Assembly: GCF_054482595.1 (NCBI RefSeq)
Contig: NZ_CM137008.1
DNA: 64,000 nt
Direction: 5' to 3' (one strand)
The notes beneath the pieces are model-generated. The model was given only the letters and a program-made list of their open reading frames with translations, had not been told where the DNA came from and made no database searches. Made by a program: the position numbers and the translations under genes. Below, piece after piece: positions 1-26,650 of this stretch. Each line of letters begins with the position of its first letter. Position 1 is the first letter of the stretch.

Positions 1-2781
1 AATGTCAAAAATTTCCATACGTTGGCGCTTCTGCTGCCGCTCCAGTAGCTTCAGCTTTTCCTGGTTTTGCTTTTGTTCTTCGATCGATTGTGCCAGTCTG
101 GCTTCTCGCTTCAACGACTTGATTTGCATTTTGGTATCGCGTAATGCTTCTTCCGCCGCAAAGATCATGTCTTCAGCCCATTTTTCCAGCTTATCTCTTT
201 CCGCTTCAAAAAGGACATTGTTCTGCTCCAAAACTTCCGCAAGCCTGGCGTCAATTTGCCTGTTCTTGAGTAAGATCAAGTCATCAGGTAATGCATCTAA
301 ACTTGCCGAATTATCCAGCTTTTCGTTGGTTATTGCAGACAAGTTGAACAGACGTTTACAAGCCTCACCATCTACCACACGGCCGCTGTCAGTTTTCGCG
401 GTAAAGACTAAAAATTGCTGCCGGTTAAACGCATCAACAGTAAGCAAATTTAGTGTTAACCACCCTGATAGCCCTTTCAGCTGCTCAGCCACCGAGACTT
501 TCGTTGTGTGGTTACTGTAATCGAAGATGACTTCAGCTGTTTTCGTCTCCTGGGCTTTGGCTCCCTCAATGACGTACTCACCCAGCGGATGATTGATCCG
601 ATATGCAAAACTGTGGTGATCCTGCATTTGTAACGCACTATTTTGCCTGCCATCTTTGCGCAACAGCTGATACTGCCCCACAGGCAGTTCATTGACTGAC
701 TCACGTAAAGTAAAACGATGATGCTCATGATCAAAATCAGCATATTGTTTGAGCTGCTGACAGGTAACGGCCCAAAACCAACGACCGACTTTATCCAGAC
801 GCTCCCGAGCTTCATCAAGCCTTATTTTAAGGATATCGTGAATATCTTCATCAAAATGCTCAAGCAACTGTTCCTGCGTCTTCTGCATCTTGAGATTGAT
901 TTCATCTTCCAGCTCTTTCTGCAACCTTTCAAAAGCCAGCTCTATCTCCTCGGGGGTACGGCATGACTCATAAATTGACTGGATCCTTTTTTCAAAATCC
1001 ACTCCATTTTCTATGCTGCCAAGCACACTATCCGATGCACCAAACACGCCATCAAACAGGCTGAACTTTTCAGTTAAGAGTTCAAGAACTCGTTGATCGG
1101 CCTGGTTTCGCTGATTGAGGAAGTTAATAACAACCACATCAAACTTTTGCCCGTATCGGTGACAACGCCCAATACGCTGTTCAATGCGTTGTGGATTCCA
1201 GGGTAAATCGTAATTGATCAGTAGCGAACAAAATTGCAGGTTCACCCCTTCAGCTGCAGCTTCTGTAGCTATCATGATTTCAGCATGATCTTTGAAGTGG
1301 TCGATCAAAGCCGAGCGTTTATCAATTTGCGCCGACCCGGTAATACGAGAAGATCCCTGATATTCCTCGCGCCATTGCTGGTAGATCTTGTTTGCCTGCG
1401 GTGTATTGTTTGTGCCACTAAAGGTTACTACTTTCCCCTGGTAGCCATTGTTTTCCAGAAAATGTGCAAGATACTGTTGAGTTCGCATTGACTCCGTGAA
1501 GATGATGACTTTTTTTGCAGCCCCCATTTCGGCAAGCTGTGCAAAACCTTGCTCCAGGCCAGAAAGCAACTCTTTTGATTTGGTATCAGTGCCAATCTGT
1601 TCTGCTTTGACAATGAGTGATTCCAGCTCATTGATTTCTGCCTGAAGCGCGTCTGAATCGACAACTTTGCACTCGGTATCTAAAGCCACTGATTCGGCAT
1701 CTTCCACGATGTCATCTTCAAGATCGTCATCCATTATGATCTGTTGGATGATGTTCATATCATCTTCAACGATACCTTCCAGCTTTAACCTTTCTAAACG
1801 ACTCTTAAGGATCTGCAAGTTATTCAATACAGCTTTCGTACTTGAGGAAAGTAGCTTTCTGAGAATAAGCCCCGTCAGATGCCGGTGTCGTTTTGGTAAG
1901 GCATAGCTATCCTCACGTTCAAGCAATTTTTGTACGCGTTCATAAAGATCCTGCTCCTGTTCGCTCGGATAGAAAGGAATAGTGATCGCTTTACGTTCTG
2001 TATACTTGATGTACTCCAGCACATTCTTGCGTAAAGTTCGTTTGATAAAACGCGACAATCGCCCCTTCAACTCCGCAATATCGCTATCTGCCTGCATATA
2101 TTGCTTTCTGAACGCTTTAACTTCGCCGAAGGTATGTTCATCTATAAGCGTCGACATGCCATACAGTTCCATTAACGAATTCTGTAAAGGCGTTGCGGTC
2201 AGTAGTAATTTTTTCCGCCCATCAAGCGCACGCTTTAACGCTTGCCCCATTTTGTTACTTTCTCGATGAGCATTACGCAGTTTATGGGCTTCGTCGATAA
2301 CAACCAGATCCCACATTTCAGCCACCAATTTTTCTTCTAACCGAGCAGCATAGTGGTATGACATGATAGTGATCGATTTATTATTTAAGGGATTATGGAT
2401 CCCTTCTTTTTGAAGCTGGCTATACGTTTTCGCGTCCAACACCTGAGAAGGTAGATTGAACTTTTCCTGTAACTCGCTCGCCCATTGGCGACGCAGTGAA
2501 GCAGGACAAATGATCAACAGTTTACGTTTTCTTTCAGCCCACAACTGGCAAAGCACTAACCCCGCTTCAATGGTTTTACCTAAACCAACTTCATCGGCAA
2601 GCACAACACCTTTGCTTAGCGGATTTTCAATAGCAAAAAGAGCCGCCTCAATTTGATGAGGATTTAGATCTACGCTTGCATCAAACAGCGATTGAGACAG
2701 ACGGTCCACCCCATTGTTTGAATGGAGAATGGAAAGTTCATGCGCAAAATATTTCGCATGATAAGGTGTTGTACCAATCAT
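1..2781 (-). CDS. SNF2-family helicase (N-terminal ~927 aa; gene runs off window start)
   Basis: Minus-strand ORF from ATG at 2781 with an in-frame TGA just upstream (2830-2832), read through to position 1 without a stop. Translated motifs: LADEVGLGKT (Walker A), VIDEAHKLRN (DEAH box), DLPWNPQRIEQRIGRCHRYGQ (motif VI); K/E/Q-rich coiled-coil-like C-terminal part. Absent from the ORF track because no stop lies inside the window. Confidence 0.8.
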   Translation of the reverse strand, partial: MIGTTPYHAKYFAHELSILHSNNGVDRLSQSLFDASVDLNPHQIEAALFAIENPLSKGVVLADEVGLGKTIEAGLVLCQLWAERKRKLLIICPASLRRQWASELQEKFNLPSQVLDAKTYSQLQKEGIHNPLNNKSITIMSYHYAARLEEKLVAEMWDLVVIDEAHKLRNAHRESNKMGQALKRALDGRKKLLLTATPLQNSLMELYGMSTLIDEHTFGEVKAFRKQYMQADSDIAELKGRLSRFIKRTLRKNVLEYIKYTERKAITIPFYPSEQEQDLYERVQKLLEREDSYALPKRHRHLTGLILRKLLSSSTKAVLNNLQILKSRLERLKLEGIVEDDMNIIQQIIMDDDLEDDIVEDAESVALDTECKVVDSDALQAEINELESLIVKAEQIGTDTKSKELLSGLEQGFAQLAEMGAAKKVIIFTESMRTQQYLAHFLENNGYQGKVVTFSGTNNTPQANKIYQQWREEYQGSSRITGSAQIDKRSALIDHFKDHAEIMIATEAAAEGVNLQFCSLLINYDLPWNPQRIEQRIGRCHRYGQKFDVVVINFLNQRNQADQRVLELLTEKFSLFDGVFGASDSVLGSIENGVDFEKRIQSIYESCRTPEEIELAFERLQKELEDEINLKMQKTQEQLLEHFDEDIHDILKIRLDEARERLDKVGRWFWAVTCQQLKQYADFDHEHHRFTLRESVNELPVGQYQLLRKDGRQNSALQMQDHHSFAYRINHPLGEYVIEGAKAQETKTAEVIFDYSNHTTKVSVAEQLKGLSGWLTLNLLTVDAFNRQQFLVFTAKTDSGRVVDGEACKRLFNLSAITNEKLDNSASLDALPDDLILLKNRQIDARLAEVLEQNNVLFEAERDKLEKWAEDMIFAAEEALRDTKMQIKSLKREARLAQSIEEQKQNQEKLKLLERQQKRQRMEIFDI

Positions 2782-3170
2782 CTTTTCTCTCTCTTCGCTG
2801 TACTTTTGACGATAACCTGCTGAATTGAATCAAGATAGTAAAAGGATACGCCAATAGTGGTTGATCCTTGAAGTAAGGACATCTCCGGTTGCGGGCCTTT
2901 GACACATAAAATCAGCAATTTTACGCATCGTTTCATGGCTAAACAATGGCACATTAAGAATGCCACTCGCTAAATGCAATCTATTTCCTGAGCCATTAGA
3001 CCAAGGCAATGAAGTTTTATATCTACTTAATTTTCAGGATGATGAATGAACATCATTGATGGGAATGGGGCTTCCGAAGTTCTTAGATTATCAGCGTTAC
3101 ATACAAACAAAGTAGTGAAAACACAGGCACAAAAAAAGCCGCCCTTGAGCGACTCGATTTGCATACGATG

Positions 3171-3193
3171 TGGTGCGAAGGCCGGACTCGAAC
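3171..3193 (-). repeat. tRNA 3'-end-derived repeat (acceptor/T-arm fragment ending CCA), probable island att remnant
   Basis: Reverse complement reads GTTCGAGTCCGGCCTTCGCACCA, as I recall a 1-nt-deleted match to the 3' end of tRNA-Leu (leuX); no cloverleaf upstream, so a partial copy rather than a gene. Confidence 0.5.
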
Positions 3194-3433
3194 ATGTGAC
3201 TTAACCTCATGATTTAAAATTGTTAATAATAAACAATATCATCTTATACCAACACAGATACCAACACGAAAAATCACTGGTTTTCGGCATCGAACCAGGA
3301 CAATCAGCTCCTGATTGAGATACCGAGCTCTGTTACTCGTCATCTTCCTCGACAGGCTTCATTGCATCAAGTAGTACTCGCACCATCGCGATAGAACCAA
3401 TCCGGATAAAAGCATCTTCTCCATCTATATCTG

Positions 3434-3580
3434 TTAACTGATATCGCTCACTTGATGCCGGATAAGTGTGTCGATTTGCAGCTGTGTACTCTTTTGTACA
3501 GCCAGAATGTGGCTGACTGAGGTGGAGCAGATAATGTCCCCGTTGACCACTTCCGGACGGGAGGCTGTGATTTCAGACAT
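3434..3580 (-). CDS. small hypothetical protein (48 aa)
   Basis: ATG at 3580 preceded by AAGGA; MSEITASRPEVVNGDII...; no recognisable family; below the ORF-track size cut-off. Confidence 0.2.
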   Translation of the reverse strand: MSEITASRPEVVNGDIICSTSVSHILAVQKSTQLQIDTLIRHQVSDIS

Positions 3581-3599
3581 AATTGATATTCCTTTTTGC

Positions 3600-3636
3600 A
3601 GATAAATGAAAACGCCAGCCCTGTTCAGGCTGGCGT
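3600..3636 (-). terminator. Rho-independent terminator-like hairpin
   Basis: GCCAGCC / GGCTGGC stem with 7-nt loop, followed on the minus strand by GTTTTCATTT. Confidence 0.45.
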
Positions 3637-3881
3637 CAGTGGAATGAAGTATGGTGAGTAATATTTATCGGTTCTGGTGCAGAAGCTGCAGTTGGCGCAG
3701 GGTACGGATACCCTCCCTGGCCTGTTCGATACAGGGCAACAGTGCTGCCGAATCCGTTTTATCCTCATCGTTGTCAAAGATAATTCCCGATTCGCAGTCG
3801 ATATTGTCCTGCAGCCACACAATCAGAATATCCAGCGCCGTTTCTGTGGTTAATGATTTCATCCTGTGTCTTTTGTCCTGG

Positions 3882-4370
3882 TTACCAGTTGAAAGTGGGT
3901 AAATCCTGCAGACATTCAGCACCGGCATCCAGATGAATGAGACTGACGCCATAACGCCGGATGAGTGTGACAACCAGACGGCGGAACGTTCTGGACAGCC
4001 CCAGGCGTTTAAGCCGCAGAACCGGGTATGACCACGCATCGGTACGTAACAGATATCCGCTACCTGTGAAATGAATCCATTCTGATTCGCCGGTGTCATT
4101 CGTCTGATTTGACAGCGAGTACAACCAGGCATTGTCCGTTTCCGTGATATGTGCGGTACTGCAGCGTATGCCGGTAAGGGCCGCAGATGGTGGCGTGCGC
4201 TCTGCTGATGTCCGGTCAGATTCATCAACAACACGAAGGGAGTAACCGTTATCGCAGACCACGTTAATCAGTTCAGCGAGAGTAACACCATCGACGTCAA
4301 CGACAATGCGCCCCATGTTCAGTGCCTGCACGTTAATGCTGTCGGCTTCCAGCGTCAGGGCCAGTTTCAT
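3882..4370 (-). CDS. YeeW-like protein of CP4-type prophage remnants
   Basis: ORF-track product ...[38 protein letters not shown]...; sits immediately after the CbtA-like toxin as in K-12 CP4-44 (recollection). Start taken at the MKLALT ATG. Confidence 0.55.
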
Positions 4371-10581: not shown

Positions 10582-11712
10582 ATGACCGGACGTAAAAACA
10601 AATGCGTCAGAAAAAATTGTAACAATCAGGTTTTCTCAGTAAAAATGGCAGTGGAGAAAAGACTGTGCAGAAAACATTATGAGAGGTTTTGTGAGCTCAA
10701 AAAAAGAAGAGAGCAAAATCCTGTTCACAGATTAAATGAAGCATTGCCAAGAAAGATAAAAGGACCCAAAAGTAAGAAAAAATTAGTAAAAGAAAGAGAA
10801 ATCATTAACAGCAGGAAGAAACATAAACAGGAGCAGGGACCATCGCTGGTTGAACTTAATAAAAAAGTTCGTGAGATACTGAAAACTCCGGCATGGAGAA
10901 CGCTGGAAACGAGAATTCGAAGAAACGGTATCACATTTAAATCAAAAGCAGAGTTAGATGTACTTTCTGAACTTTATGCAATTTATTCATGGGTTTCATA
11001 TTGCAAACGGAGCGATAATTATTCTGTGTGGTTTTTGAATTGTCCGGATGTAAATATAAATCTTCATGTGTGCGAATGCAGGTCTTCTGAAAGCGATTGT
11101 TATCTACCATCCCGTTTTATTATTCTTCCAGCTCCATTAAGGCAAAAAGTAAAAAGAAAATACCCTGCTAATTCGTCTGGAGTGTCAGGATATAGTGATT
11201 CAAAAAGTCTTTATAAGACTGTTTTGTCTGTTTGTGGTGGGAAAAGAGAAACCGAATTGTTCTTTTATTCACTGCCAGTAAAGACTAATCATCATCCTTA
11301 CTGGATTAAAAGTGGTGTGGTTAAAAGATTTCCGCCTATTTTTGGCTTGTTGTTTTATGAACAGGAAAGGTTAACAGGAGGTGTTTTTCGTTATGTGTTG
11401 ATAAAGTTTTATAATGCTTTTAAGGAGAATTTGTTTTTTGTTGAGATTATCTCGTGCTGTTTTCTTGTTGAGTTTTTTCATGATATTGATTCATTTTTTA
11501 TAAATCAACGATTAAGTAAGTTGGAAATTTTTATAGATAAGTGGAGGGAGGGTAAAGAAATCTGGATAAAAGCATATCTACAACTGATACATAATGCATT
11601 GGGAATAACTGAAACAGAAAAACTCGTCAATCTATATAATTCATTTTTTACTGATAAAGTGGTTCTCTGGGATGAATCAGTAAAAAAAGTTAAGTGGATT
11701 TATGAGAAATAG
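10582..11712 (+). CDS. hypothetical protein, Cys-rich basic N-terminus, strongly AT-rich gene
   Basis: 376-aa ORF with GGA RBS-like purines upstream; N-terminal C-x5-C...C-x-K-H-x4-C cluster and K/R-rich stretch; no recognised domain; divergent from the GTPase gene. Confidence 0.5.
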   Translation: MTGRKNKCVRKNCNNQVFSVKMAVEKRLCRKHYERFCELKKRREQNPVHRLNEALPRKIKGPKSKKKLVKEREIINSRKKHKQEQGPSLVELNKKVREILKTPAWRTLETRIRRNGITFKSKAELDVLSELYAIYSWVSYCKRSDNYSVWFLNCPDVNINLHVCECRSSESDCYLPSRFIILPAPLRQKVKRKYPANSSGVSGYSDSKSLYKTVLSVCGGKRETELFFYSLPVKTNHHPYWIKSGVVKRFPPIFGLLFYEQERLTGGVFRYVLIKFYNAFKENLFFVEIISCCFLVEFFHDIDSFFINQRLSKLEIFIDKWREGKEIWIKAYLQLIHNALGITETEKLVNLYNSFFTDKVVLWDESVKKVKWIYEK

Positions 11713-12252
11713 CACCATTTAACTGAAAGCTACCATAACGTCTTTTTGATCACACGCATGATAATGCGTCTCATTTAAATTTCGTTTTTTGGGTCATGGA
11801 AATTTTCCGAACATCAGTGATAATGAGGGTTTTGTTGTTTTTGTTTCTGCAATGTTTGAGGGCTGTTCCTGGAGACGATTCGTTGCTTGTGAGCAAGTGG
11901 TGGTCCGCTTTACTGGACGAGTTTTGCATTTGTTGAGTGGTGAAATGGAAGTAAAAAGAGCCCCTTTCTGGCAATGACTGAAAAAGTCAGTAGCGTGTAA
12001 CAGTAAAAACTAACATAAAGTGATTATCGTATGATTATGACAATAACTTATAACTTTTATGAAAAGAACAACAGAAACTACGAAGCCATAACAGATTCCT
12101 GAGACCATGTTTTCTGAGGTAGAGAAAATAATTCAAGAGTAAACCAGTTTGTTTTTTGGTCAGTAAAGAACCATGCCTGATGTGAAAACGGGTAATCAAC
12201 ATTCAGTCTGCATGGATGTTTGGAAGAGTTGAGAATGTCGGTATGATACTAT

Positions 12253-12360
12253 ATACACGTATTTTTACTAAGCATTTCAGTAAGTGTTATACACGTATTT
12301 TTACTAAGCATTTCAGTAAGTGTTATACACGTATTTTCATAAACACTTCTACAAGTGTTT
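12253..12360. repeat. tandem direct repeats (2 perfect 36-bp units plus a degenerate third)
   Basis: ATACACGTATTTTTACTAAGCATTTCAGTAAGTGTT at 12253-12288 and 12289-12324, then a diverged copy beginning ATACACGTATTTTCATAAACACTT. Confidence 0.85.
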
Positions 12361-13228
12361 TCGTTAAGCATTGCTATACACATCCAGTTTAGTAAATCTT
12401 TACGTTAACTAAATCAGTTTAATGCTGCTGTAAAACCTTTCTGCTTCAGCAATCAATCTGCTATTCGATTTTACTGATGTTACGTTTAACCTTTCCTGAT
12501 ATTTCGAGTTTCGACGTTAGCATGAGAAAAGTATCTTTACGCTAAATCAACCCGAACTTTCCTGAAGTAATCTGACGTTCTTTTCGATGTGCTTACGACG
12601 ATTCTGTTAAACGACTTTCTGGATGTTTTGATAACAATCAGATTTAGGCATTAACGATTCCTGACGTTTTTCTTTTCCGTGTAAGGTCATTGTTTTCGTC
12701 ATGATGTGACTCTTCTTGCATTGCGAAAGTGTGATGAACGGTTTTGGTGTTTTGATTCAGATGAAGTTTACGTTATCGATGGTTAATCGTTTTTATGGTG
12801 CGTAGTGAAACGTAACGCTTTCAGGAAGGGAAAATCGATTCTGATGGGGATGATCGTGTAACGGCGTTATCTGTAAACAGGTTTTAAACATGTCATTCGC
12901 ATCCGTGATTAAGTTGTGTGATTAAGCTGTAGGTTTTGGCGTTGTTGTTGATTTGCATTACCAGGAAGCGTTCTGGTTGCGTTTCTGGTGTTTTGTTTGA
13001 ATGTTCTGTGGATCCTTTTCCCTTCTGACTTTTCTCGTTGTCCATGTCGTTTTTAAATCCATTCGCTGTTCTTGAGTGTTTTTACCCTGTGTGTAGGATT
13101 ATCTTTTTGTTCCGTTTCAATCACTCTTAATCAGAAAGTTGTAGCATTGCTCAATGCCGGATGCCGTAAAGTTTTACCGCGGTGATTAATGATGTGAAGT
13201 CAATCCAAATCAACGGAGATCTCTCATC

Positions 13229-13960
13229 ATGAATCAACCAATACACAATGCTTACTGGTTATCCCGTTTTGAAAGTATTCTCAACGGTGCCCTGGCGCAA
13301 CACCGTGCCGTCTCGTTAATCCGGGTGGATTTACGTTTCCCTGAGTATATGCCTGCCACCATCATGGATACCGATTTAGATTCAGCGGTGATTTCTCGTT
13401 TTTTTGCATCCCTGAAAGCAAAAATTCAGGCTTACCAGCGGAAAAAACGACGTGCCAACAAGCGTGTGCGTGCAACCACTCTGCGTTATTTCTGGTGTCG
13501 GGAGTTTGGCAAGGAAAAAGGCAGGAAACATTATCACGTGATATTACTGCTCAACAAAGATACCTGGTGCTCGCCAGGGGATTTCACCGTTCCTTCTTCG
13601 CTGGCGACGCTGATCCAACTGGCATGGTGCAGTGCTCTGCATCTTGAGCCCTGGCAGGGTAATGGACTGGTTCACTTTTCCAGGCGGACGCCTTTCCGTA
13701 AACCGACATCATCTGATGCTCGCCCTTCTTCCGATGATACGCCTGTGCCTGGTGGATGTTCTGATACCCGGAAGGATTCTGACAAAAAATCTGGTGGATC
13801 CGCTGTTCTCTGGGTCAAGCGTGGTGATGTGGAAGCGATGCAGAAAGCCATGGAGAGAGCCCGTTATCTCGTGAAGTATGAGACGAAGCAGCATGACGGT
13901 TCTGGTCAACGTAATTATGGTTGCAGTCGTGGGCTGGGGCGTCTACTGGATGGCAGGTGA
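13229..13960 (+). CDS. YagK/YfjJ-family protein (inovirus Gp2-like family of CP4 islands)
   Basis: 243 aa; MNQPIHNAYWLSRFESILNGAL...HYHVILLLNKD; paralogous to the ORF at 19172-19738. Confidence 0.7.
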   Translation: MNQPIHNAYWLSRFESILNGALAQHRAVSLIRVDLRFPEYMPATIMDTDLDSAVISRFFASLKAKIQAYQRKKRRANKRVRATTLRYFWCREFGKEKGRKHYHVILLLNKDTWCSPGDFTVPSSLATLIQLAWCSALHLEPWQGNGLVHFSRRTPFRKPTSSDARPSSDDTPVPGGCSDTRKDSDKKSGGSAVLWVKRGDVEAMQKAMERARYLVKYETKQHDGSGQRNYGCSRGLGRLLDGR

Positions 13961-14287
13961 ACCCTGTAAAACAGCATCCGATGCCTGAGTTTATGCCAAC
14001 GCCCTTAGCTCGCTTTCTGAAAAGTCGTCCTGAAGTAATGCAATGGATTGCCATCTACTTCCGTTCGTGACACATAAGTCGAAAAACCTTTGGTTGTTCT
14101 GGTTATTTGCATTTACTGCCATTCATAGAAATGAACAGATCGATTGGTAGGACTCAAATGTTATAGCGTCTCTCTTCTCATAGTCTGCTTTGTACCAGAC
14201 GCGGAATCCCCTAATGCTGGTGTACAGGTTCTGACTCATTTCCTCCCCCACTTTCATCCCGTTATACTGTGAAAAAAGGAGGTAGGC

Positions 14288-15166
14288 GTGAAACTGAAAA
14301 TGCAGGATTTGAGGCTGTTTAATATTGTGTTCGAGAGCGATCCTGGCTGGATACTGGATTTCTCTAACCGCACCTTGTCTGCTTTTTTCGATGAAGAATT
14401 GAACATTGATATTGATGATGAACGTTATCAGAAAGAGGGGACGTCAAAAGCCAAACGAGTTAGATGCTTGCTGAAACAGGTTGATCGTGAGACCGCTCTG
14501 CGGGTTCTTGGTGCGCTCTGGCAGTATAAAACGGAATCCATGCCTGAACAGGCTGAACAAAGCCGTAATGACTATCTTGCACTGATTTCCCGCTTAGAAA
14601 ACGCTGACACCGATGAAGCCAAAGGCGTTAAGCCTGTCCAGGCATGGCATGGTGTTGACTGGCATTCACTTATCGCTGAAATGAACGAGATGAAATCTCT
14701 GCCGCCACATCCACGTGGTTTTCGGTTTGAAGCCTGGCTTGCTGAACTGTTCAGTATCTTTAAGCTTGCTCCCCGTTCGTCTTTCCGAAATACAGGCGAA
14801 CAGATTGACGGAAGTTTCCGACTGAATGATGAATTTTACCTGATGGAGGCAAAGTGGCATCAGAAAAGAACGTCGGCTGCCGACCTCCATGTATTTGAAG
14901 GAAAGCTCAGTACCAAGGCAACCTGGACACGCGGTGTTTTTATCAGTTGGATGGGCTTTACGCCTGAAGGCCTGACGGCTTTTGGTAAAGGGAAGCGGGT
15001 TATCTGTGTCAGTGGTTATGATCTTTACCACTCACTGAATCATAGGATCCCTTTACCCGACCTTCTGGATGCTAAAACCCGGCACGCGGCTGAAACGGGA
15101 GAGCCCTATGCTGAGTTCGACCGACTATATGCACTGAAAGACAAACAGTTCGGCACGCTGAAATAA
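14288..15166 (+). CDS. Mrr-like (PD-(D/E)xK) restriction-endonuclease-domain protein with unrelated N-terminal domain
   Basis: GTG 14288 preceded by AGGAGG (alternative ATG 14300). C-terminal GEQIDGSF...[10 protein letters not shown]...[11 protein letters not shown] parallels the Mrr catalytic region (GDGGIDG...VQAKRW...RGVFITTSGFT) as I recall it. Confidence 0.6.
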
Positions 15167-23252: not shown

Positions 23253-24291
23253 ACAAATATTATTGAAAGAGATTTTTATGAAAACGAAGCTTTTTACGAT
23301 TTCTATCGGCATTGATGTAATATAGAAGAGTTATATAAATTATTCAAATCAAATTTTCTATTGAAGATTTTCATTCACAGAGTGAGAAAGATGTAAAATA
23401 AAAATACAGGCTCATATATTATTACTTAACCTTACATGGATATCCTGAAATGACATTAATTATTAAGATAATAACGTTTTCATCGGTAGTAGTAGAAATA
23501 AACAAAATTTTAATTTCAAAAACTGCTTGTTTCTCGTAGTGAGGTACTTGTCTTTACTGATTCGGATAACAGGAAAACATTTAAAATCATTCTGTTGCGC
23601 TCTTTCTGAGAGGCTGATTGCAAAATGGCATCTGAATCGATCGCAGTTGTATGACTCAGCGAGTAAGGCCAGGGAGGTGTTACCCACGAAAATATGTACG
23701 GCCCAGAACGCGCTGGAACTCTTTTGATGCTCCAGCAAGAACTTAACCGAATGCCATTGGTACGCTGCCCCACAGAAAATTCCGTCACTAATGGCGGTAG
23801 CCGACAGATTCACATGGCGTCACCGCAGTAAACCAAGATGGATCTTGATTGCGTCCTCAACAGACAACATATCTGCTTTGGACAACGAGCCAATATGTGT
23901 TTTGAGACAGGACTTATCCGCCGCCATAATCTGCTCTACAATCGCTTTGCTGCTCTGACACCTACGGTCACAACAGCCTCACTTGGATACACTCGCTCTG
24001 TGTTACTGGTCAGAGGAACGACGACTACTCGAGCGAGGTTCCTGTTTGCTGCGTCATTGCTCACGATCACTGCCGGACATGTCTTGCGGATTTCACTGTC
24101 AACAGCAGGATCAAATTCAATCCACCACGTCTCACCTGTGCCGTCACTGCTCTGTCATCTTTCTAACACTTTACTGTCTAACACATGTAATAAAAAAGTT
24201 ATTTTTCTGCAATTCGGGCATGATATTTAATCCCACGAGCATGAAACGTGTGAATTCGCTCATCAGGTACAACAAGCAAGAGAGATAAACG

Positions 24292-25608
24292 ATGAAACCG
24301 TTACATTATACAGCTTCAGCACTGGTGCTCGGACTGACGTTAATGGGGAATGCACAGGCAGTGACGACCATTCCGTTCTGGCACTCTATGGAAGGGGAAC
24401 TGGGTAAAGAGGTGAATTCTCTGGTCCAACGTTTTAACGCCGAAAACCCGGATTACAAAATTATACCGACTTATAAAGGCAACTACGAAGAGAGTTTAAG
24501 TGCGGGGATCGCAGCATTTCGTACCGGTAACGCTCCGGCTATTTTGCAGGTTTATGAAGTTGGCACCGCCACCATGATGGCGTCGAAAGCCATTAAACCG
24601 GTGTATGACGTGTTTAAAGAGGCGGGGATTAACTTTGATGAGTCGCAGTTTGTGCCGACGGTTTCAGGCTACTACTCCGACAGTAAAACCGGACACTTAC
24701 TCTCCCAGCCGTTCAACAGCTCGACTCCTGTTCTCTATTACAACAAAGATGCTTTCAAGAAAGCAGGATTAGACCCGGAACAGCCGCCGAAAACCTGGCA
24801 GGATCTGGCGGACTATGCCGCGAAACTGAAAGCCTCCGGTATGAAGTGCGGCTACTCCAGCGGCTGGCAGGGCTGGATCCAACTGGAAAACTTTAGCGCC
24901 TGGAACGGTCTGCCGTTTGCCAGCAAAAACAACGGCTTTGACGGCACAGATGCGGTGCTGGAGTTCAACAAGCCGGAGCAGGTGAAACACATCGCCATGC
25001 TCGAAGAGATGAACAAGAAAGGCGATTTCAGCTACGTCGGGCGTAAGGATGAATCCACCGAGAAGTTCTATAACGGTGATTGCGCAATGACGACTGCCTC
25101 TTCTGGTTCTCTTGCCAGCATTCGCGAGTACGCCAAATTCAACTACGGCGTAGGCATGATGCCTTACGACGCTGACGCGAAAGATGCACCACAAAACGCC
25201 ATTATCGGCGGAGCCAGCCTGTGGGTGATGCAGGGCAAAGATAAAGAAACGTATACCGGCGTGGCGAAGTTCCTCGACTTCCTCGCGAAGCCAGAAAATG
25301 CTGCCGAGTGGCACCAGAAAACCGGTTATCTGCCAATCACCAAAGCGGCGTATGACCTGACCCGTGAGCAGGGCTTTTACGAGAAAAACCCAGGGGCGGA
25401 TATCGCGACACGTCAGATGCTGAACAAACCGTCGTTACCGTTCACCAAAGGACTACGTCTGGGCAACATGCCGCAGATCAGAGCGATTGTGGATGAAGAG
25501 CTTGAGAGCGTGTGGACCGGTAAGAAGACGCCACAGCAGGCGCTGGATACCGCCGTTGAGCGTGGGAATCAGTTACTACGCCGCTTTGAGAAATCGACGA
25601 AGTCTTAA
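24292..25608 (+). CDS. ugpB: sn-glycerol-3-phosphate ABC transporter periplasmic binding protein
   Basis: 438 aa, near-identical over its length to E. coli UgpB as I recall it ([11 protein letters not shown]...GNAQA signal, ...[10 protein letters not shown]-terminus). Confidence 0.9.
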
Positions 25609-25742
25609 CCAGTGTAATGTCGGATACGTTTCGCCTATCTGAGCTAACATCGCGTGTAGGCCGATGTGATTGACATCTTCCTCCTTACGGCATCAACGTT
25701 CCAGACTGAGATGTACCCAGTTCCCTGGTGGAGAAGTCAGTC

Positions 25743-26650
25743 ATGAATATTAATCGTATTGGTTTCGATCTTGCCGAAAAATGTTTTTCAAATCCACGGC
25801 GTTGATCACAATGAATAGTGGTACGGAGAAAAACGCTGAGCCCTCCCCACATGATGACGTTTTTCTCCGGGCTTTCTCCCTGCCTCATCAGCATCGAAGT
25901 CTGTGGCTCTTCCCATTCTGGGCACGGGAACTCATTCCGTATGGGGCCTACCGTGCGCATTATTCCGTAGAAACTTGTCAAATCTTATCTCAAAGGTAAC
26001 AAAAACGACGCTAATAATGCAGCTGCCATCTGTGAGGCCGTCAGCAGGCCCGGCATGCGATTTGTTGTTTTCATATCGGAATCCCAGCAGACGTTACAGG
26101 AAGAATACCGGGTCCGGGCCAGAATCATCCGCGAGCGAACGGCGTTGCGTAATGAAATCCGGGGGCTGTTGAGTGAATTTGGTCTGCTGCTGCCTGTGGG
26201 GATAAGGCACGTGCGTAAAATCCAGCAGGGAATACTGCCCAGGGGCAGTGGAATGACCCTTCATCCGTTTGTTGTGCGAACTGTCAGAGTAAAATGAACT
26301 CATATCGTCTCATGACCACCGTCTTCATGAGGCTGCAAGGGATGATATCCGTATTAAACAGCTGATGGAGCTAAAAGGAGTTGGTCCCACAACAGCCTGT
26401 GCGCTGGTTGCCTGTATCGGTAATGCACATGATTTTAAAAAGGGACGGCAACTGGCAGCCTGGCTGGGCTGACGCTATCACAATACAGCAGCGGCTGAAT
26501 GTCGAAGCTGGGCAGGATAACAAAAGCCGGTGATTCGTATCTGCGAATGCTTCTGGTTCAGGGGGCTCGTTCAGTACTGATTGGTGCTGAGAAAAGGACT
26601 GACTCATTCAGTCGTTGGGTCTGTTCACTGGTTGAACGCAGAGAATACTG
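25743..26650 (+). pseudogene. IS110-family transposase, multiply frameshifted
   Basis: Starts MNINRIGFDLAEK then shifts frame; later pieces ...EYRVRARIIRERTALRNEIRGLLSEFG... and ...LMELKGVGPTTACALVACIGNAHDFKKGRQLAAWLG... in different frames. Confidence 0.6.

Follow-up and report, generated by a model that had tools for sequence, protein, structure and literature searches.

[quoted passage not shown] It is equally close to certain that the cassette is placed between the end repeat of the leuX island and nanS, with mod and res lying just off-window. Neither the gene nor its link to Type III systems is new; both have been published (PMC8259958). The features on which the analysis draws are as follows.

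1..2781, minus strand: partial coding sequence of the SNF2 gene, codons 1-927 of 963; ATG at 2781-2779, 3' end off-window
1915..2658, minus strand: SNF2-rel_dom lobe (Pfam, aa 42-289, E 8.5e-37), holding motifs I, II and III
2586-2572, minus strand: motif I, GLGKT (aa 66-70)
2295-2284, minus strand: motif II, DEAH (aa 163-166)
2199-2188, minus strand: motif III, TATP (aa 195-198)
1150..1473, minus strand: second RecA-like lobe, Helicase_C (Pfam, aa 437-544, E 2.7e-19)
1179-1147, minus strand: motif VI, QRIGRCHRYGQ (aa 535-545)
1..996, minus strand: C-terminal module specific to the family (aa 596-963, of which the window holds aa 596-927)
about 954-754, minus strand: long helix or helical hairpin (AlphaFold)
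about 741-292, minus strand: beta-rich domain (AlphaFold)
from 285 past the window edge, minus strand: long antiparallel coiled-coil hairpin (aa 833-946, AlphaFold)
2782..3135, minus strand: non-coding leader of the SNF2 gene
3136..3193, minus strand: right-hand boundary of the ~77-kb leuX island
3171-3193, minus strand: repeat of the 3'-terminal 24 nt of leuX, differing only by a 1-nt deletion
3155-3136, minus strand: terminator-like hairpin after the leuX repeat, with a copy of leuX downstream sequence

Translation of the reverse complement reveals a single 943-codon open frame on the minus strand, which exits the window at base 1. The full-length protein of 963 aa (WP_021557482.1) is found in E. 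coli SM107 and DETEC-C31; it is 100% identical to the window protein over the shared part, and in these two genomes the frame stays open for the 36 codons beyond base 1. The initial annotation had described an SNF2-family helicase gene running past the window edge, without giving a strand. The gene is real—a single open reading frame, with 927 of its 963 codons inside the window and matches to the Pfam domains—and it is encoded on the minus strand. The Walker A, DEAH and motif VI sequences named there were all located, as was motif III, and the frameshift outside the window that had been raised as a possible objection is absent from SM107 and DETEC-C31, both of which encode the full protein. 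On the basis of its two lobes and of motifs I, II, III and VI, the window protein is assigned by sequence to the SNF2 family of SF2 ATPases. The ATPase motif residues of both lobes are unchanged throughout 69 homologues. The gene has a GC content of 44% and is present in 149–151 of 5,426 complete E. coli genomes (~3%); it is accessory DNA. A search of the gene for phase-variable repeats found no simple-sequence tract, and only a single weak 15-nt repeat of 2.5 copies.

The partners of the SNF2 gene lie immediately beyond the window. In SM107, DETEC-C31, E24377A and NCTC86, the mod start codon is located 20 bp past the SNF2 stop codon on the same strand, and in the genomes that are identical to the window over positions 1–3300 the SNF2 gene is followed by a Type III Mod of 1,040 aa and then a Res of 1,126 aa. 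As read in these matching genomes, Mod matches PADLOC MTase_III (PDLC03646, 1336 bits), Pfam N6_N4_Mtase (E 6e-29) and the EcoP15I Mod (4zcf, E 1.7e-39), and is a member of the beta class of N6/N4 amino-methyltransferases with homology to Type III Mod. Res matches PADLOC REase_III (PDLC03654, 2326 bits). Its GSGKT, DEGH, SAT and GRGVR (GRGxR) motifs, together with a C-terminal PD...DPKG, are conserved across 37 homologues; Res carries the ATPase motifs of SF2 together with a PD-(D/E)xK-like nuclease motif. Sequence and profile searches with Res against the PDB, EcoP15I Res included, gave no match. SM107 and DETEC-C31 are 100% identical to the window across positions 1–3300 and only 99.1% and 99.9% identical, respectively, over 12 kb; because they are not identical over the longer distance, the condition of mod and res in the window's own genome is inferred from them. 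The mod gene of SM107 has a 1-nt insertion.

E. coli NCTC86, the source of Eco86II, has the same gene order at this very locus, between nanS and the end of the leuX island. The Res of the window-matching genomes is 100% identical to R.Eco86II, and the window SNF2 protein differs from that of NCTC86 (WP_000580534.1) at 5 of 927 residues (99.5% identity). Mod is 96–100% identical to M.Eco86II over its N-terminal ~390 aa and C-terminal ~140 aa, but in SM107 and DETEC-C31 its central aa 390–900, containing the catalytic and recognition regions, are only 10–46% identical. The recognition site of the window lineage, and possibly the methylated base too, probably differ from GAGCC and m4C. The prototype EcoP15I/EcoPI systems (PDB 4ZCF) share the homologous Mod core, the SF2 and PD-(D/E)xK-like Res motifs and the mod-res order, but they have no SNF2 gene and their Mod is shorter, the Eco86II-type protein having ~400 additional aa at the N-terminus and ~220 at the C-terminus.

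An ‘additional helicase-like ATPase’ 5' of mod has already been described for Eco86II (Murray et al. 2021 PLoS One; PMC8259958). In that study site-specific single-strand methylation and ATP-dependent cleavage were demonstrated for Eco86II itself, which makes m4C rather than m6A. The helicase-like ATPase was dispensable for methylation, Mod alone methylating fully; no toxicity was reported when M.Eco86II was expressed alone; and no SNF2 peptides were found in the partially purified, active enzyme. The ATPase was tied to Type III systems in >500 genomes, and its function was left unassigned (PMC8259958).

The linkage is maintained well beyond E. coli. The genomic context was surveyed at 49 informative species-level loci, each with at least 8 kb of downstream sequence. 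The SNF2 gene is followed by a type III-type methyltransferase at 48 of the 49, with the same long Mod and Res at 36 and a weak methyltransferase match only at 12; three of these 12 (L014, L024 and L034) were scanned and encode a Mod and Res of canonical Type III size from other PADLOC families. The Mod and Res proteins encoded with SNF2 come from at least three different families. The gap between SNF2 and Mod has a median of 39 bp, with both genes on the same strand, and plasmids keep the SNF2-Mod-Res arrangement at 38–58% identity. SNF2 relatives are 52–67% identical across phyla, and at least 583 species-level genomes carried the gene in a scan. The cassette is horizontally mobile, occurring on islands and conjugative plasmids, and other defence genes (HEC-01A/B, PDC-S02, SoFic, AbiD, OLD, PD-T4-4 and AbiU) are found embedded in such cassettes, in either the SNF2-Mod or the Mod-Res interval. 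In other genera small HTH_17 or WYL regulators often precede the SNF2 gene. In E. coli, Res is present in 165 genomes and SNF2 in 149, indicating that some genomes keep Res without SNF2. No SNF2-Mod or SNF2-Res fusion was present among the 150 relatives listed; the four longest relatives bear unrelated N- or C-terminal extensions.

Beyond the motor, the protein carries the family-specific C-terminal module. A coiled-coil-like tail had been noted previously; it is present, but in the AlphaFold model it forms only one part of a larger folded module, which ends in a terminal beta strand and has a pLDDT of 89 over aa 596–963. No significant match to the module was found in the PDB, and Pfam, AlphaFold and PDB comparisons gave no recognised nuclease motif in the module and no other effector domain in the protein. 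Its matches in AFDB are uncharacterised SNF2 proteins only, and it is present in 3,283 cluster representatives. Between groups of relatives with different partner types, identity is 62% in the N-terminal part of the protein and 41% in the C-terminal part; inside partner-type groups the corresponding values are 64–71% and 51–54%. The C-terminal module therefore appears to co-vary with partner type, although the signal is modest and confounded by phylogeny. All five substitutions relative to the NCTC86 protein are located in this module. Distant relatives with the same C-terminal module are found without Type III genes, and some SNF2 relatives bear an N-terminal nuclease-like extension.

What the SNF2 protein contributes to the cassette is a matter of more tentative interpretation. 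Neither methylation nor the cutting of naked DNA in vitro requires the protein. The reading favoured here, to which we give a little short of an even chance, is that it acts in vivo as an auxiliary double-stranded DNA translocase for Mod2Res without being a stoichiometric subunit. In this model the SNF2 motor would translocate along double-stranded DNA at the expense of ATP, while the C-terminal beta/coiled-coil module would touch Mod or Res. The motor may then clear or push DNA-bound proteins, or Mod2Res complexes in the sliding state, allowing two head-to-head enzymes to meet and to cut protein-coated or replicating invader DNA. The outcome would be an enhancement of restriction in vivo.

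Of the elements of this model, the identity of the gene, its intact ATPase motifs, the conserved mod/res linkage and the lack of a nuclease domain are observed. The invariance of the ATPase motifs in the 69 homologues favours an active motor, and contact with a partner is favoured by the divergence of the C-terminal module by partner type and by the position there of five of five NCTC86 substitutions. By analogy, further support may come from the SNF2 partners of other methylation-based defences, which are needed for protection: in ARMADA the delta-armA strain lyses as the delta-armABCD strain does, and in DISARM deletion of drmD and drmMI nearly abolishes protection against phage Nami. Against the accessory motor stand the lack of fusions among the 150 relatives listed, the E. 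coli genomes with Res and no SNF2, and the relatives that share the C-terminal module in genomes without Type III genes. The mass spectrometry and the methylation by Mod alone reported for Eco86II (PMC8259958) also count against it: SNF2 is not needed for either core activity, and any stable SNF2-Mod2Res complex is hypothetical. A literature search found no experiment on the function of the SNF2 ATPase.

In a stronger version, which is possible but on balance doubtful, a very large class of Type III R-M systems would have SNF2 as a genuine third functional component. The C-terminal module of SNF2 would dock onto Mod or Res and its motor would alter communication along DNA in vivo, either through motor-assisted rather than purely diffusive convergence or through access to protein-coated DNA. 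If this were the case, SNF2 plus methyltransferase would constitute one ancient module common to Type III R-M, DISARM class 1, ARMADA and Hma, and the protein would be a functional analogue of eukaryotic DDM1/HELLS, which work with DNA methyltransferases.

The protein might instead protect the host. Here SNF2 would act in a RapA-like manner, stripping Mod2Res or stalled sliding clamps from the host chromosome and so limiting autoimmunity upon establishment in a new host, after replication or upon DNA damage, rather than boosting restriction. This would fit a protein that cleavage and methylation can do without, both in vitro and on heterologous expression, that is always encoded first in the operon, before mod, and whose closest solved relative by sequence is RapA (E 3e-36); the mobility of the cassette on islands and conjugative plasmids would also make the problem of establishment a recurrent one. 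Yet host protection in Type III systems, for example EcoP15I, is ensured by single-strand methylation and the head-to-head rule, and classical systems of this kind consequently cope without such a factor. Expression of M.Eco86II alone had no reported toxicity, and what depends on the SNF2 partners of ARMADA and DISARM is defence, not viability. We consider a self-protective role unlikely.

It is also improbable, in our judgement, that the SNF2 gene is an independent or back-up defence gene, sensing or acting alone on phage DNA or anti-restriction proteins, with the Type III operon as its usual carrier and co-regulation as the only connection. The cassettes are indeed hotspots for the embedded defence genes named above (HEC-01A/B to AbiU), Hma, BREX and Type I R-M are known to harbour genes embedded in a like manner, and single-protein SNF2 defences such as HmaA exist; the distant relatives without Type III genes and the relatives with the N-terminal nuclease-like extension point the same way. 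However, neither a nuclease nor any other effector domain is present in the window protein, SNF2 is fixed as the first gene while the embedded cargo varies, and the linkage extends to at least three Mod/Res families with a C-terminal module that tracks partner type.

A regulatory role, in which SNF2 would tune mod/res transcription or the timing of Mod versus Res, for instance by acting on RNA polymerase as RapA does, appears very unlikely. The upstream position of the gene in the operon, often behind small HTH_17 or WYL regulators in other genera, and the similarity to RapA would be compatible with it, but the N-terminal domains of RapA are absent and the score is far under the RapA cut-off. 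Moreover, a motor of 963 aa would be an unusual controller where dedicated HTH/WYL genes exist, and conservation as strong as 52–67% identity between phyla is in keeping with an enzyme that works on DNA. RapA (HepA), the bacterial housekeeping SNF2 ATPase, has the SNF2 core in common with the window protein and, over aa 37–227, gives the best sequence match to a solved structure, but its N- and C-terminal domains are unlike those of the window protein. With the RapA model (NCBIfam NF003426) the protein reaches 166.7 bits, the cut-off being 576, and the gene is present in only 149–151 of 5,426 complete E. coli genomes; RapA was rejected on these grounds. The initial annotation was thus right to separate the gene from chromosomal RapA, and the gene, present in ~3% of E. 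coli genomes and linked to Mod and Res, is unlike the conserved housekeeping helicase without partners that it named as the alternative. The accessory, defence-cassette character of the gene, with partners just off-window, is borne out by the methyltransferase 20 bp after the stop codon.

That the SNF2 protein is the DrmD of a DISARM class 1 system has a negligible probability: DrmD is its best PADLOC match (PDLC02619, E 3e-198) and best NCBIfam match (DISARM_DrmD_b, NF038318), but the latter scores 666.9 bits against a curated cut-off of 950, drmA, drmB, drmC and drmMI are absent, and Type III Mod and Res adjoin the gene. A second model, NF038317, gave 289.9 bits against a cut-off of 610. DrmA, DrmB (DUF1998), DrmC (PLD) and DrmMI were all absent within 20 kb on each side in SM107 and 14 kb in E24377A, and from loci in Legionella, Vibrio and Desulfurispira. 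DISARM class 1 was accordingly rejected, and with it the example that had been offered for such helicases; of the partners proposed for a search past position 1, a methyltransferase was found, though not of the DrmMI type, while a PLD nuclease and a DUF1998 protein were not. DrmD is nevertheless the nearest profile over the SNF2 core (aa 31–729), the C-terminal part of the profile being unmatched, and both drmD and the window gene directly precede the gene for a DNA methyltransferase, each within a defence system based on methylation.

Two further systems were considered. Hma and ARMADA II (ArmA-D) are likewise three- or four-gene co-directional arrangements of SNF2, methylase and a large ATPase or helicase, and Hma, like the SNF2-Mod-Res relatives, is a hotspot for embedded defence genes including HEC-01. 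Membership of Hma was rejected: HmaA (PADLOC) gave only 194 bits, well under the DrmD match, and HmaB and HmaC had no match to Mod or Res at E <= 1e-3. ARMADA encodes a PglX-like methylase and a YprA/DUF1998 helicase, neither of which is present at the Eco86II-type locus. ARMADA type II was rejected as Res has only ResIII and DEAD domains (Pfam), Mod is an N6_N4_Mtase protein and the adjacent genes include none that is UvrD-like.

Type III enzymes serve as the textbook example of how ATP-triggered one-dimensional diffusion allows communication over long distances. The co-encoding of a predicted SNF2 translocase in many species suggests that the in vivo mechanism is richer than the two-subunit model, since the gene accompanies Type III systems in >500 genomes (PMC8259958) and is carried by at least 583 species-level genomes in the scan. 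DISARM class 1, ARMADA and Hma also pair SNF2 with a methylase; the Eco86II cassette is simple and biochemically tractable, and an answer obtained there would probably transfer to these systems.

At the chromosomal level, the gene had been placed outside the island boundary. This holds narrowly, given the leuX end repeat at 3171–3193, but the gene itself is still accessory DNA. In SM107, leuX proper lies about 77 kb from the end repeat. ARAGORN found no tRNA gene in the window and Rfam no RNA in positions 1–4000, the leuX 3' fragment being the only trace of one. A simple scan of the coding strand of the SNF2 leader found no sigma-70-like promoter, and a tblastn search of the E. coli leader for an upstream HTH_17 gene of the kind found in Legionella and Vibrio gave only an insignificant match (E 0.41). 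With the window SNF2 gene, the edge of an Eco86II-type R-M cassette is placed beside the leuX island, which is of value for annotation rather than a discovery.

In bases 1–3300 of the window, six-frame translation finds a sole long open frame, which lies on the minus strand and is stop-free for 943 codons. Its first ATG, at 2781, is preceded by a purine-rich stretch and its 3' side exits the window at base 1, which is the sole reason for its absence from the ORF listing. The SNF2 motifs were located among the 927 in-window residues of the encoded protein.

Motifs of the SNF2 protein (gene on the minus strand, 2781 to 1)
Residues 66–70, GLGKT
Residues 163–166, DEAH
Residues 195–198, TATP
Residues 535–545, QRIGRCHRYGQ

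Together with Pfam matches to SNF2-rel_dom (E = 8.5e-37) and Helicase_C (E = 2.7e-19), the frame and motifs bear out the initial annotation of a SNF2-family gene, which had left the strand unstated. The same annotation had the gene running past the window, and this proved correct. In a megablast search of 5,426 complete E. coli genomes, bases 1–3300 were 100% identical in SM107 and DETEC-C31, and approximately 98.8% identical in NCTC86, E24377A, F9792, B4103-1 and others; in all matching genomes the gene, named "SNF2-related protein", is intact at 963 codons, the 36 off-window codons being free of frameshifts. Over 12 kb the window strain is an exact match to neither SM107 nor DETEC-C31. The gene alone is present in 149–151 of the 5,426 genomes and is therefore accessory; its G+C content is 44.4% versus 47.6% for the window. 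Identity with RapA, already discounted in the initial annotation, is rejected by an NCBIfam RapA score of 166.7 bits, where the cut-off is 576.

Extension past base 1, as had been proposed, was made in the matching genomes. In every one, a methyltransferase gene (mod) of approximately 1,040 codons starts 20 bp past the SNF2 stop codon, followed by a 1,126-codon "DEAD/DEAH box helicase" gene encoding the restriction subunit, Res, both on the SNF2 gene's strand. Mod matches PADLOC MTase_III PDLC03646 (1336 bits) and Pfam N6_N4_Mtase; its residues 505–810 match EcoP15I Mod (PDB 4ZCF, E = 1.7e-39), and it carries large extensions at its N- and C-termini. Res matches PADLOC REase_III PDLC03654 (2326 bits); neither sequence nor profile searches of the PDB detected a relative. 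In an alignment of 37 homologues, Res conserves GSGKT, DEGH, SAT and QxxGRGVR as well as a C-terminal PD...DPKG nuclease-like motif. [quoted passage not shown]

Eco86II of E. coli NCTC86 is a Type III system which produces m4C at GAGCC and cleaves downstream of the site (Murray et al. 2021, PLoS One, PMC8259958). The SNF2-type gene lies beside Type III mod/res in >500 genomes, and the SNF2-type protein is dispensable for methylation and naked-DNA cutting and escaped mass-spectrometric detection in partially purified, active Eco86II (PMC8259958). F9792 and B4103-1, both of which match the window, are given as GAGCC systems (PMC8259958). The SNF2 gene and its Type III association are thus already in the literature. 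The NCTC86 SNF2 protein differs from that of the window at 5 of 927 residues, all within residues 743–900, while NCTC86 Res is 100% identical to SM107 Res. The mod alleles (L001, the SM107 locus, 23432–26552; L089, DETEC-C31, 12432–15551; L096, NCTC86, 11432–14554) show a different pattern: SM107 and DETEC-C31 Mod are 96–100% identical to M.Eco86II over residues 1–350 and 901–1040, but just 10–46% identical over residues 401–900, so that their specificity probably differs. Such a mosaic implies, from sequence comparison, a swapped catalytic and recognition core. DETEC-C31 mod is intact; SM107 mod is split into 919 and 102 codons by a 1-nt insertion (GAAATTGG vs GAAATGG) near the junction of the swapped central segment with the conserved 3' end, which could be a true inactivation or a sequencing error.

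At 52–88% identity, homologues of the SNF2 protein with approximately 955–965 residues were found in Salmonella, Enterobacter, Vibrio, Aeromonas, Legionella, Shewanella and Pseudomonas; others are found in Planctomycetes, Firmicutes, Synergistetes, Chloroflexi, Nitrospirae and Chrysiogenetes. With one genome scanned per species, at least 583 loci were confirmed. For the survey of context, 80 loci were kept among the matches listed, 49 of them with at least 8 kb past the SNF2 gene. Long Mod and long Res, as in E. coli, are encoded at 36 of these 49 and long Mod without long Res at one; 11 have a weak methyltransferase match without a long-Res match, and at one (L080) neither Mod nor Res is matched. 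Three weak-match loci (L014, L024 and L034) encode Type III Mod of canonical size (570–650 residues; PADLOC PDLC03634 or PDLC03636) and Res of 907–931 residues (PDLC03647 or PDLC03648), and ORF sizes at the remaining weak-match loci resemble these. The order SNF2–Mod–Res is kept on Salmonella IncFIB, Roseomonas and Aeromonas plasmids at 38–58% identity, and in Legionella, Vibrio and Desulfurispira loci; median gaps are 39 bp from SNF2 to Mod and 11.5 bp from Mod to Res. Across at least three mod/res families, linkage of SNF2 to these Type III genes is conserved and operon-like. Among E. coli genomes, Res is found in 165–190 versus 149–151 for SNF2, the two usually, but not always, being inherited together.

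The cassette has two cargo slots, holding same-strand genes with a known or candidate defence role: the SNF2–Mod gap is occupied in 11 of 49 loci and the Mod–Res gap in 11 of 36 (cargo loci L005, L014, L018, L032, L034, L037, L044, L047, L051, L053, L057, L062, L063, L076, L082, L084, L086, L088, L093 and L095). Embedded genes include HEC-01A/B (7 loci), PDC-S02/DUF1016, SoFic, AbiD, PDC-M30/M41, OLD, PD-T4-4 (PD-T4-4_A) and AbiU, with Abi and AAA+DUF4276 as additional slot genes. Published descriptions of such embedding cover Hma, BREX, DISARM and Type I R-M. Both slots are empty in the E. coli cassette. Legionella, Vibrio and Salmonella/Klebsiella plasmids carry a small HTH_17 gene overlapping the start codon of SNF2, and a WYL-domain gene takes its position on Aeromonas plasmid pMC64A, suggesting dedicated cassette regulators (upstream regulator genes: L003 9816–10001, L006 9834–10004, L093 6232–6432, L095 8081–8992). 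No HTH_17 or WYL-type gene lies upstream of the E. coli SNF2 gene.

The SNF2 protein has an intact SNF2 motor and no nuclease. Invariance of its ATPase motif residues across 69 homologues speaks for an active motor. AlphaFold pLDDT is 76 for the full length and 89 for residues 596–963, which contain a C-terminal module.

Elements of the C-terminal module predicted by AlphaFold
Residues 610–676, long helix or helical hairpin
Residues 681–830, beta-rich domain
Residues 833–946, long antiparallel coiled-coil hairpin
C-terminal end, beta strand

Between SNF2 groups with different Mod/Res families, identity is 41% in the module and 62% in the core; within groups it is 51–54% and 64–71%. Divergence of the module by Mod/Res family would be expected of a partner-contact domain, the signal being modest and uncontrolled for phylogeny.

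Type III linkage is inconsistent among distant relatives sharing the module (L090 5458–11835; L092 9001–11805; proteins P0136, P0174, P0141 and P0215). One is on a conjugative element, behind an N6_N4 methylase, a Dam-like methylase and an HNH protein; another is solitary. The four proteins are longer variants: inspection of the sequences suggests a PD-(D/E)xK-like N-terminal extension in P0136 and, in P0174, one resembling an HTH plus a GHKL-type ATPase; P0215 has an extra N-terminal and P0141 an extra 500-residue C-terminal extension.

By analogy with ARMADA II, in which the SNF2 partner ArmA is required for defence, and class 1 DISARM, in which DrmD is required with DrmMI, the SNF2 protein may be a dsDNA translocase that aids Type III restriction in vivo, with the C-terminal module contacting its partner; this reading is put forward tentatively. 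The motor might clear protein roadblocks on invading DNA, or might drive sliding Mod2Res complexes together, the C-terminal module making contact. The negative mass spectrometry (PMC8259958) makes a stable complex less likely but is compatible with one that is transient or DNA-dependent. The protein might instead be a RapA-like remover shielding the host chromosome, which seems unlikely; an independent defence gene, merely co-regulated with mod and res, appears somewhat less likely again, and a regulator of mod/res expression is improbable. The role of the SNF2 protein is a reasonable experimental question. The DISARM-type context once suggested is effectively refuted: a DNA methyltransferase does adjoin the gene and the top profile matches are to DISARM DrmD (PADLOC PDLC02619, E = 3e-198; NCBIfam DrmD_b, 667 bits), but the latter score is under the curated cut-off of 950 bits, the match is confined to the ATPase core, the neighbours are Type III, and no DUF1998, PLD, DrmA or DrmMI gene was found near the SNF2 gene among matching-genome neighbours or in profile scans.

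ARAGORN found no tRNA across the window. Two features lie upstream of the SNF2 gene.

Features at the island edge
3171–3193, minus strand, leuX 3' repeat (last 24 nt of leuX minus one base)
3155–3136, minus strand, terminator-like hairpin, which with a diverged copy of leuX downstream sequence follows the repeat

Positions 3136–3193 (minus strand) delimit on its right an approximately 77-kb leuX island; leuX and an integrase lie about that far off in SM107 (4404358–4405894). The SNF2 gene is therefore just outside the island's right end, where the initial annotation had placed it, in variable DNA with the leuX repeat on one side and the core genes nanS, nanM, nanC and fimB on the other.

Beside the boundary, 3300–24000 is a CP4-type element by annotation of the matching SM107 region, with cbtA/cbeA toxin-antitoxin, antirestriction (KlcA/ArdB-like), JAB/RadC, DUF932, YeeP-like GTPase and restriction endonuclease genes and several IS fragments; the anti-restriction gene is approximately 2.5 kb from the restriction cassette. 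At 59725–64000 (plus strand) lie the DNA phosphorothioation genes dndB, dndC and the beginning of dndD, with dptFGH just past the window's far end in SM107. A gene for a 'phosphorothioated DNA-binding restriction endonuclease' (SM107 4316963–4317835; NCBIfam NF045808, 433 bits) lies approximately 0.7 kb past Res and 7 kb beyond window base 1, so that one genome encodes a phosphorothioate writer together with a phosphorothioate-dependent cutter.
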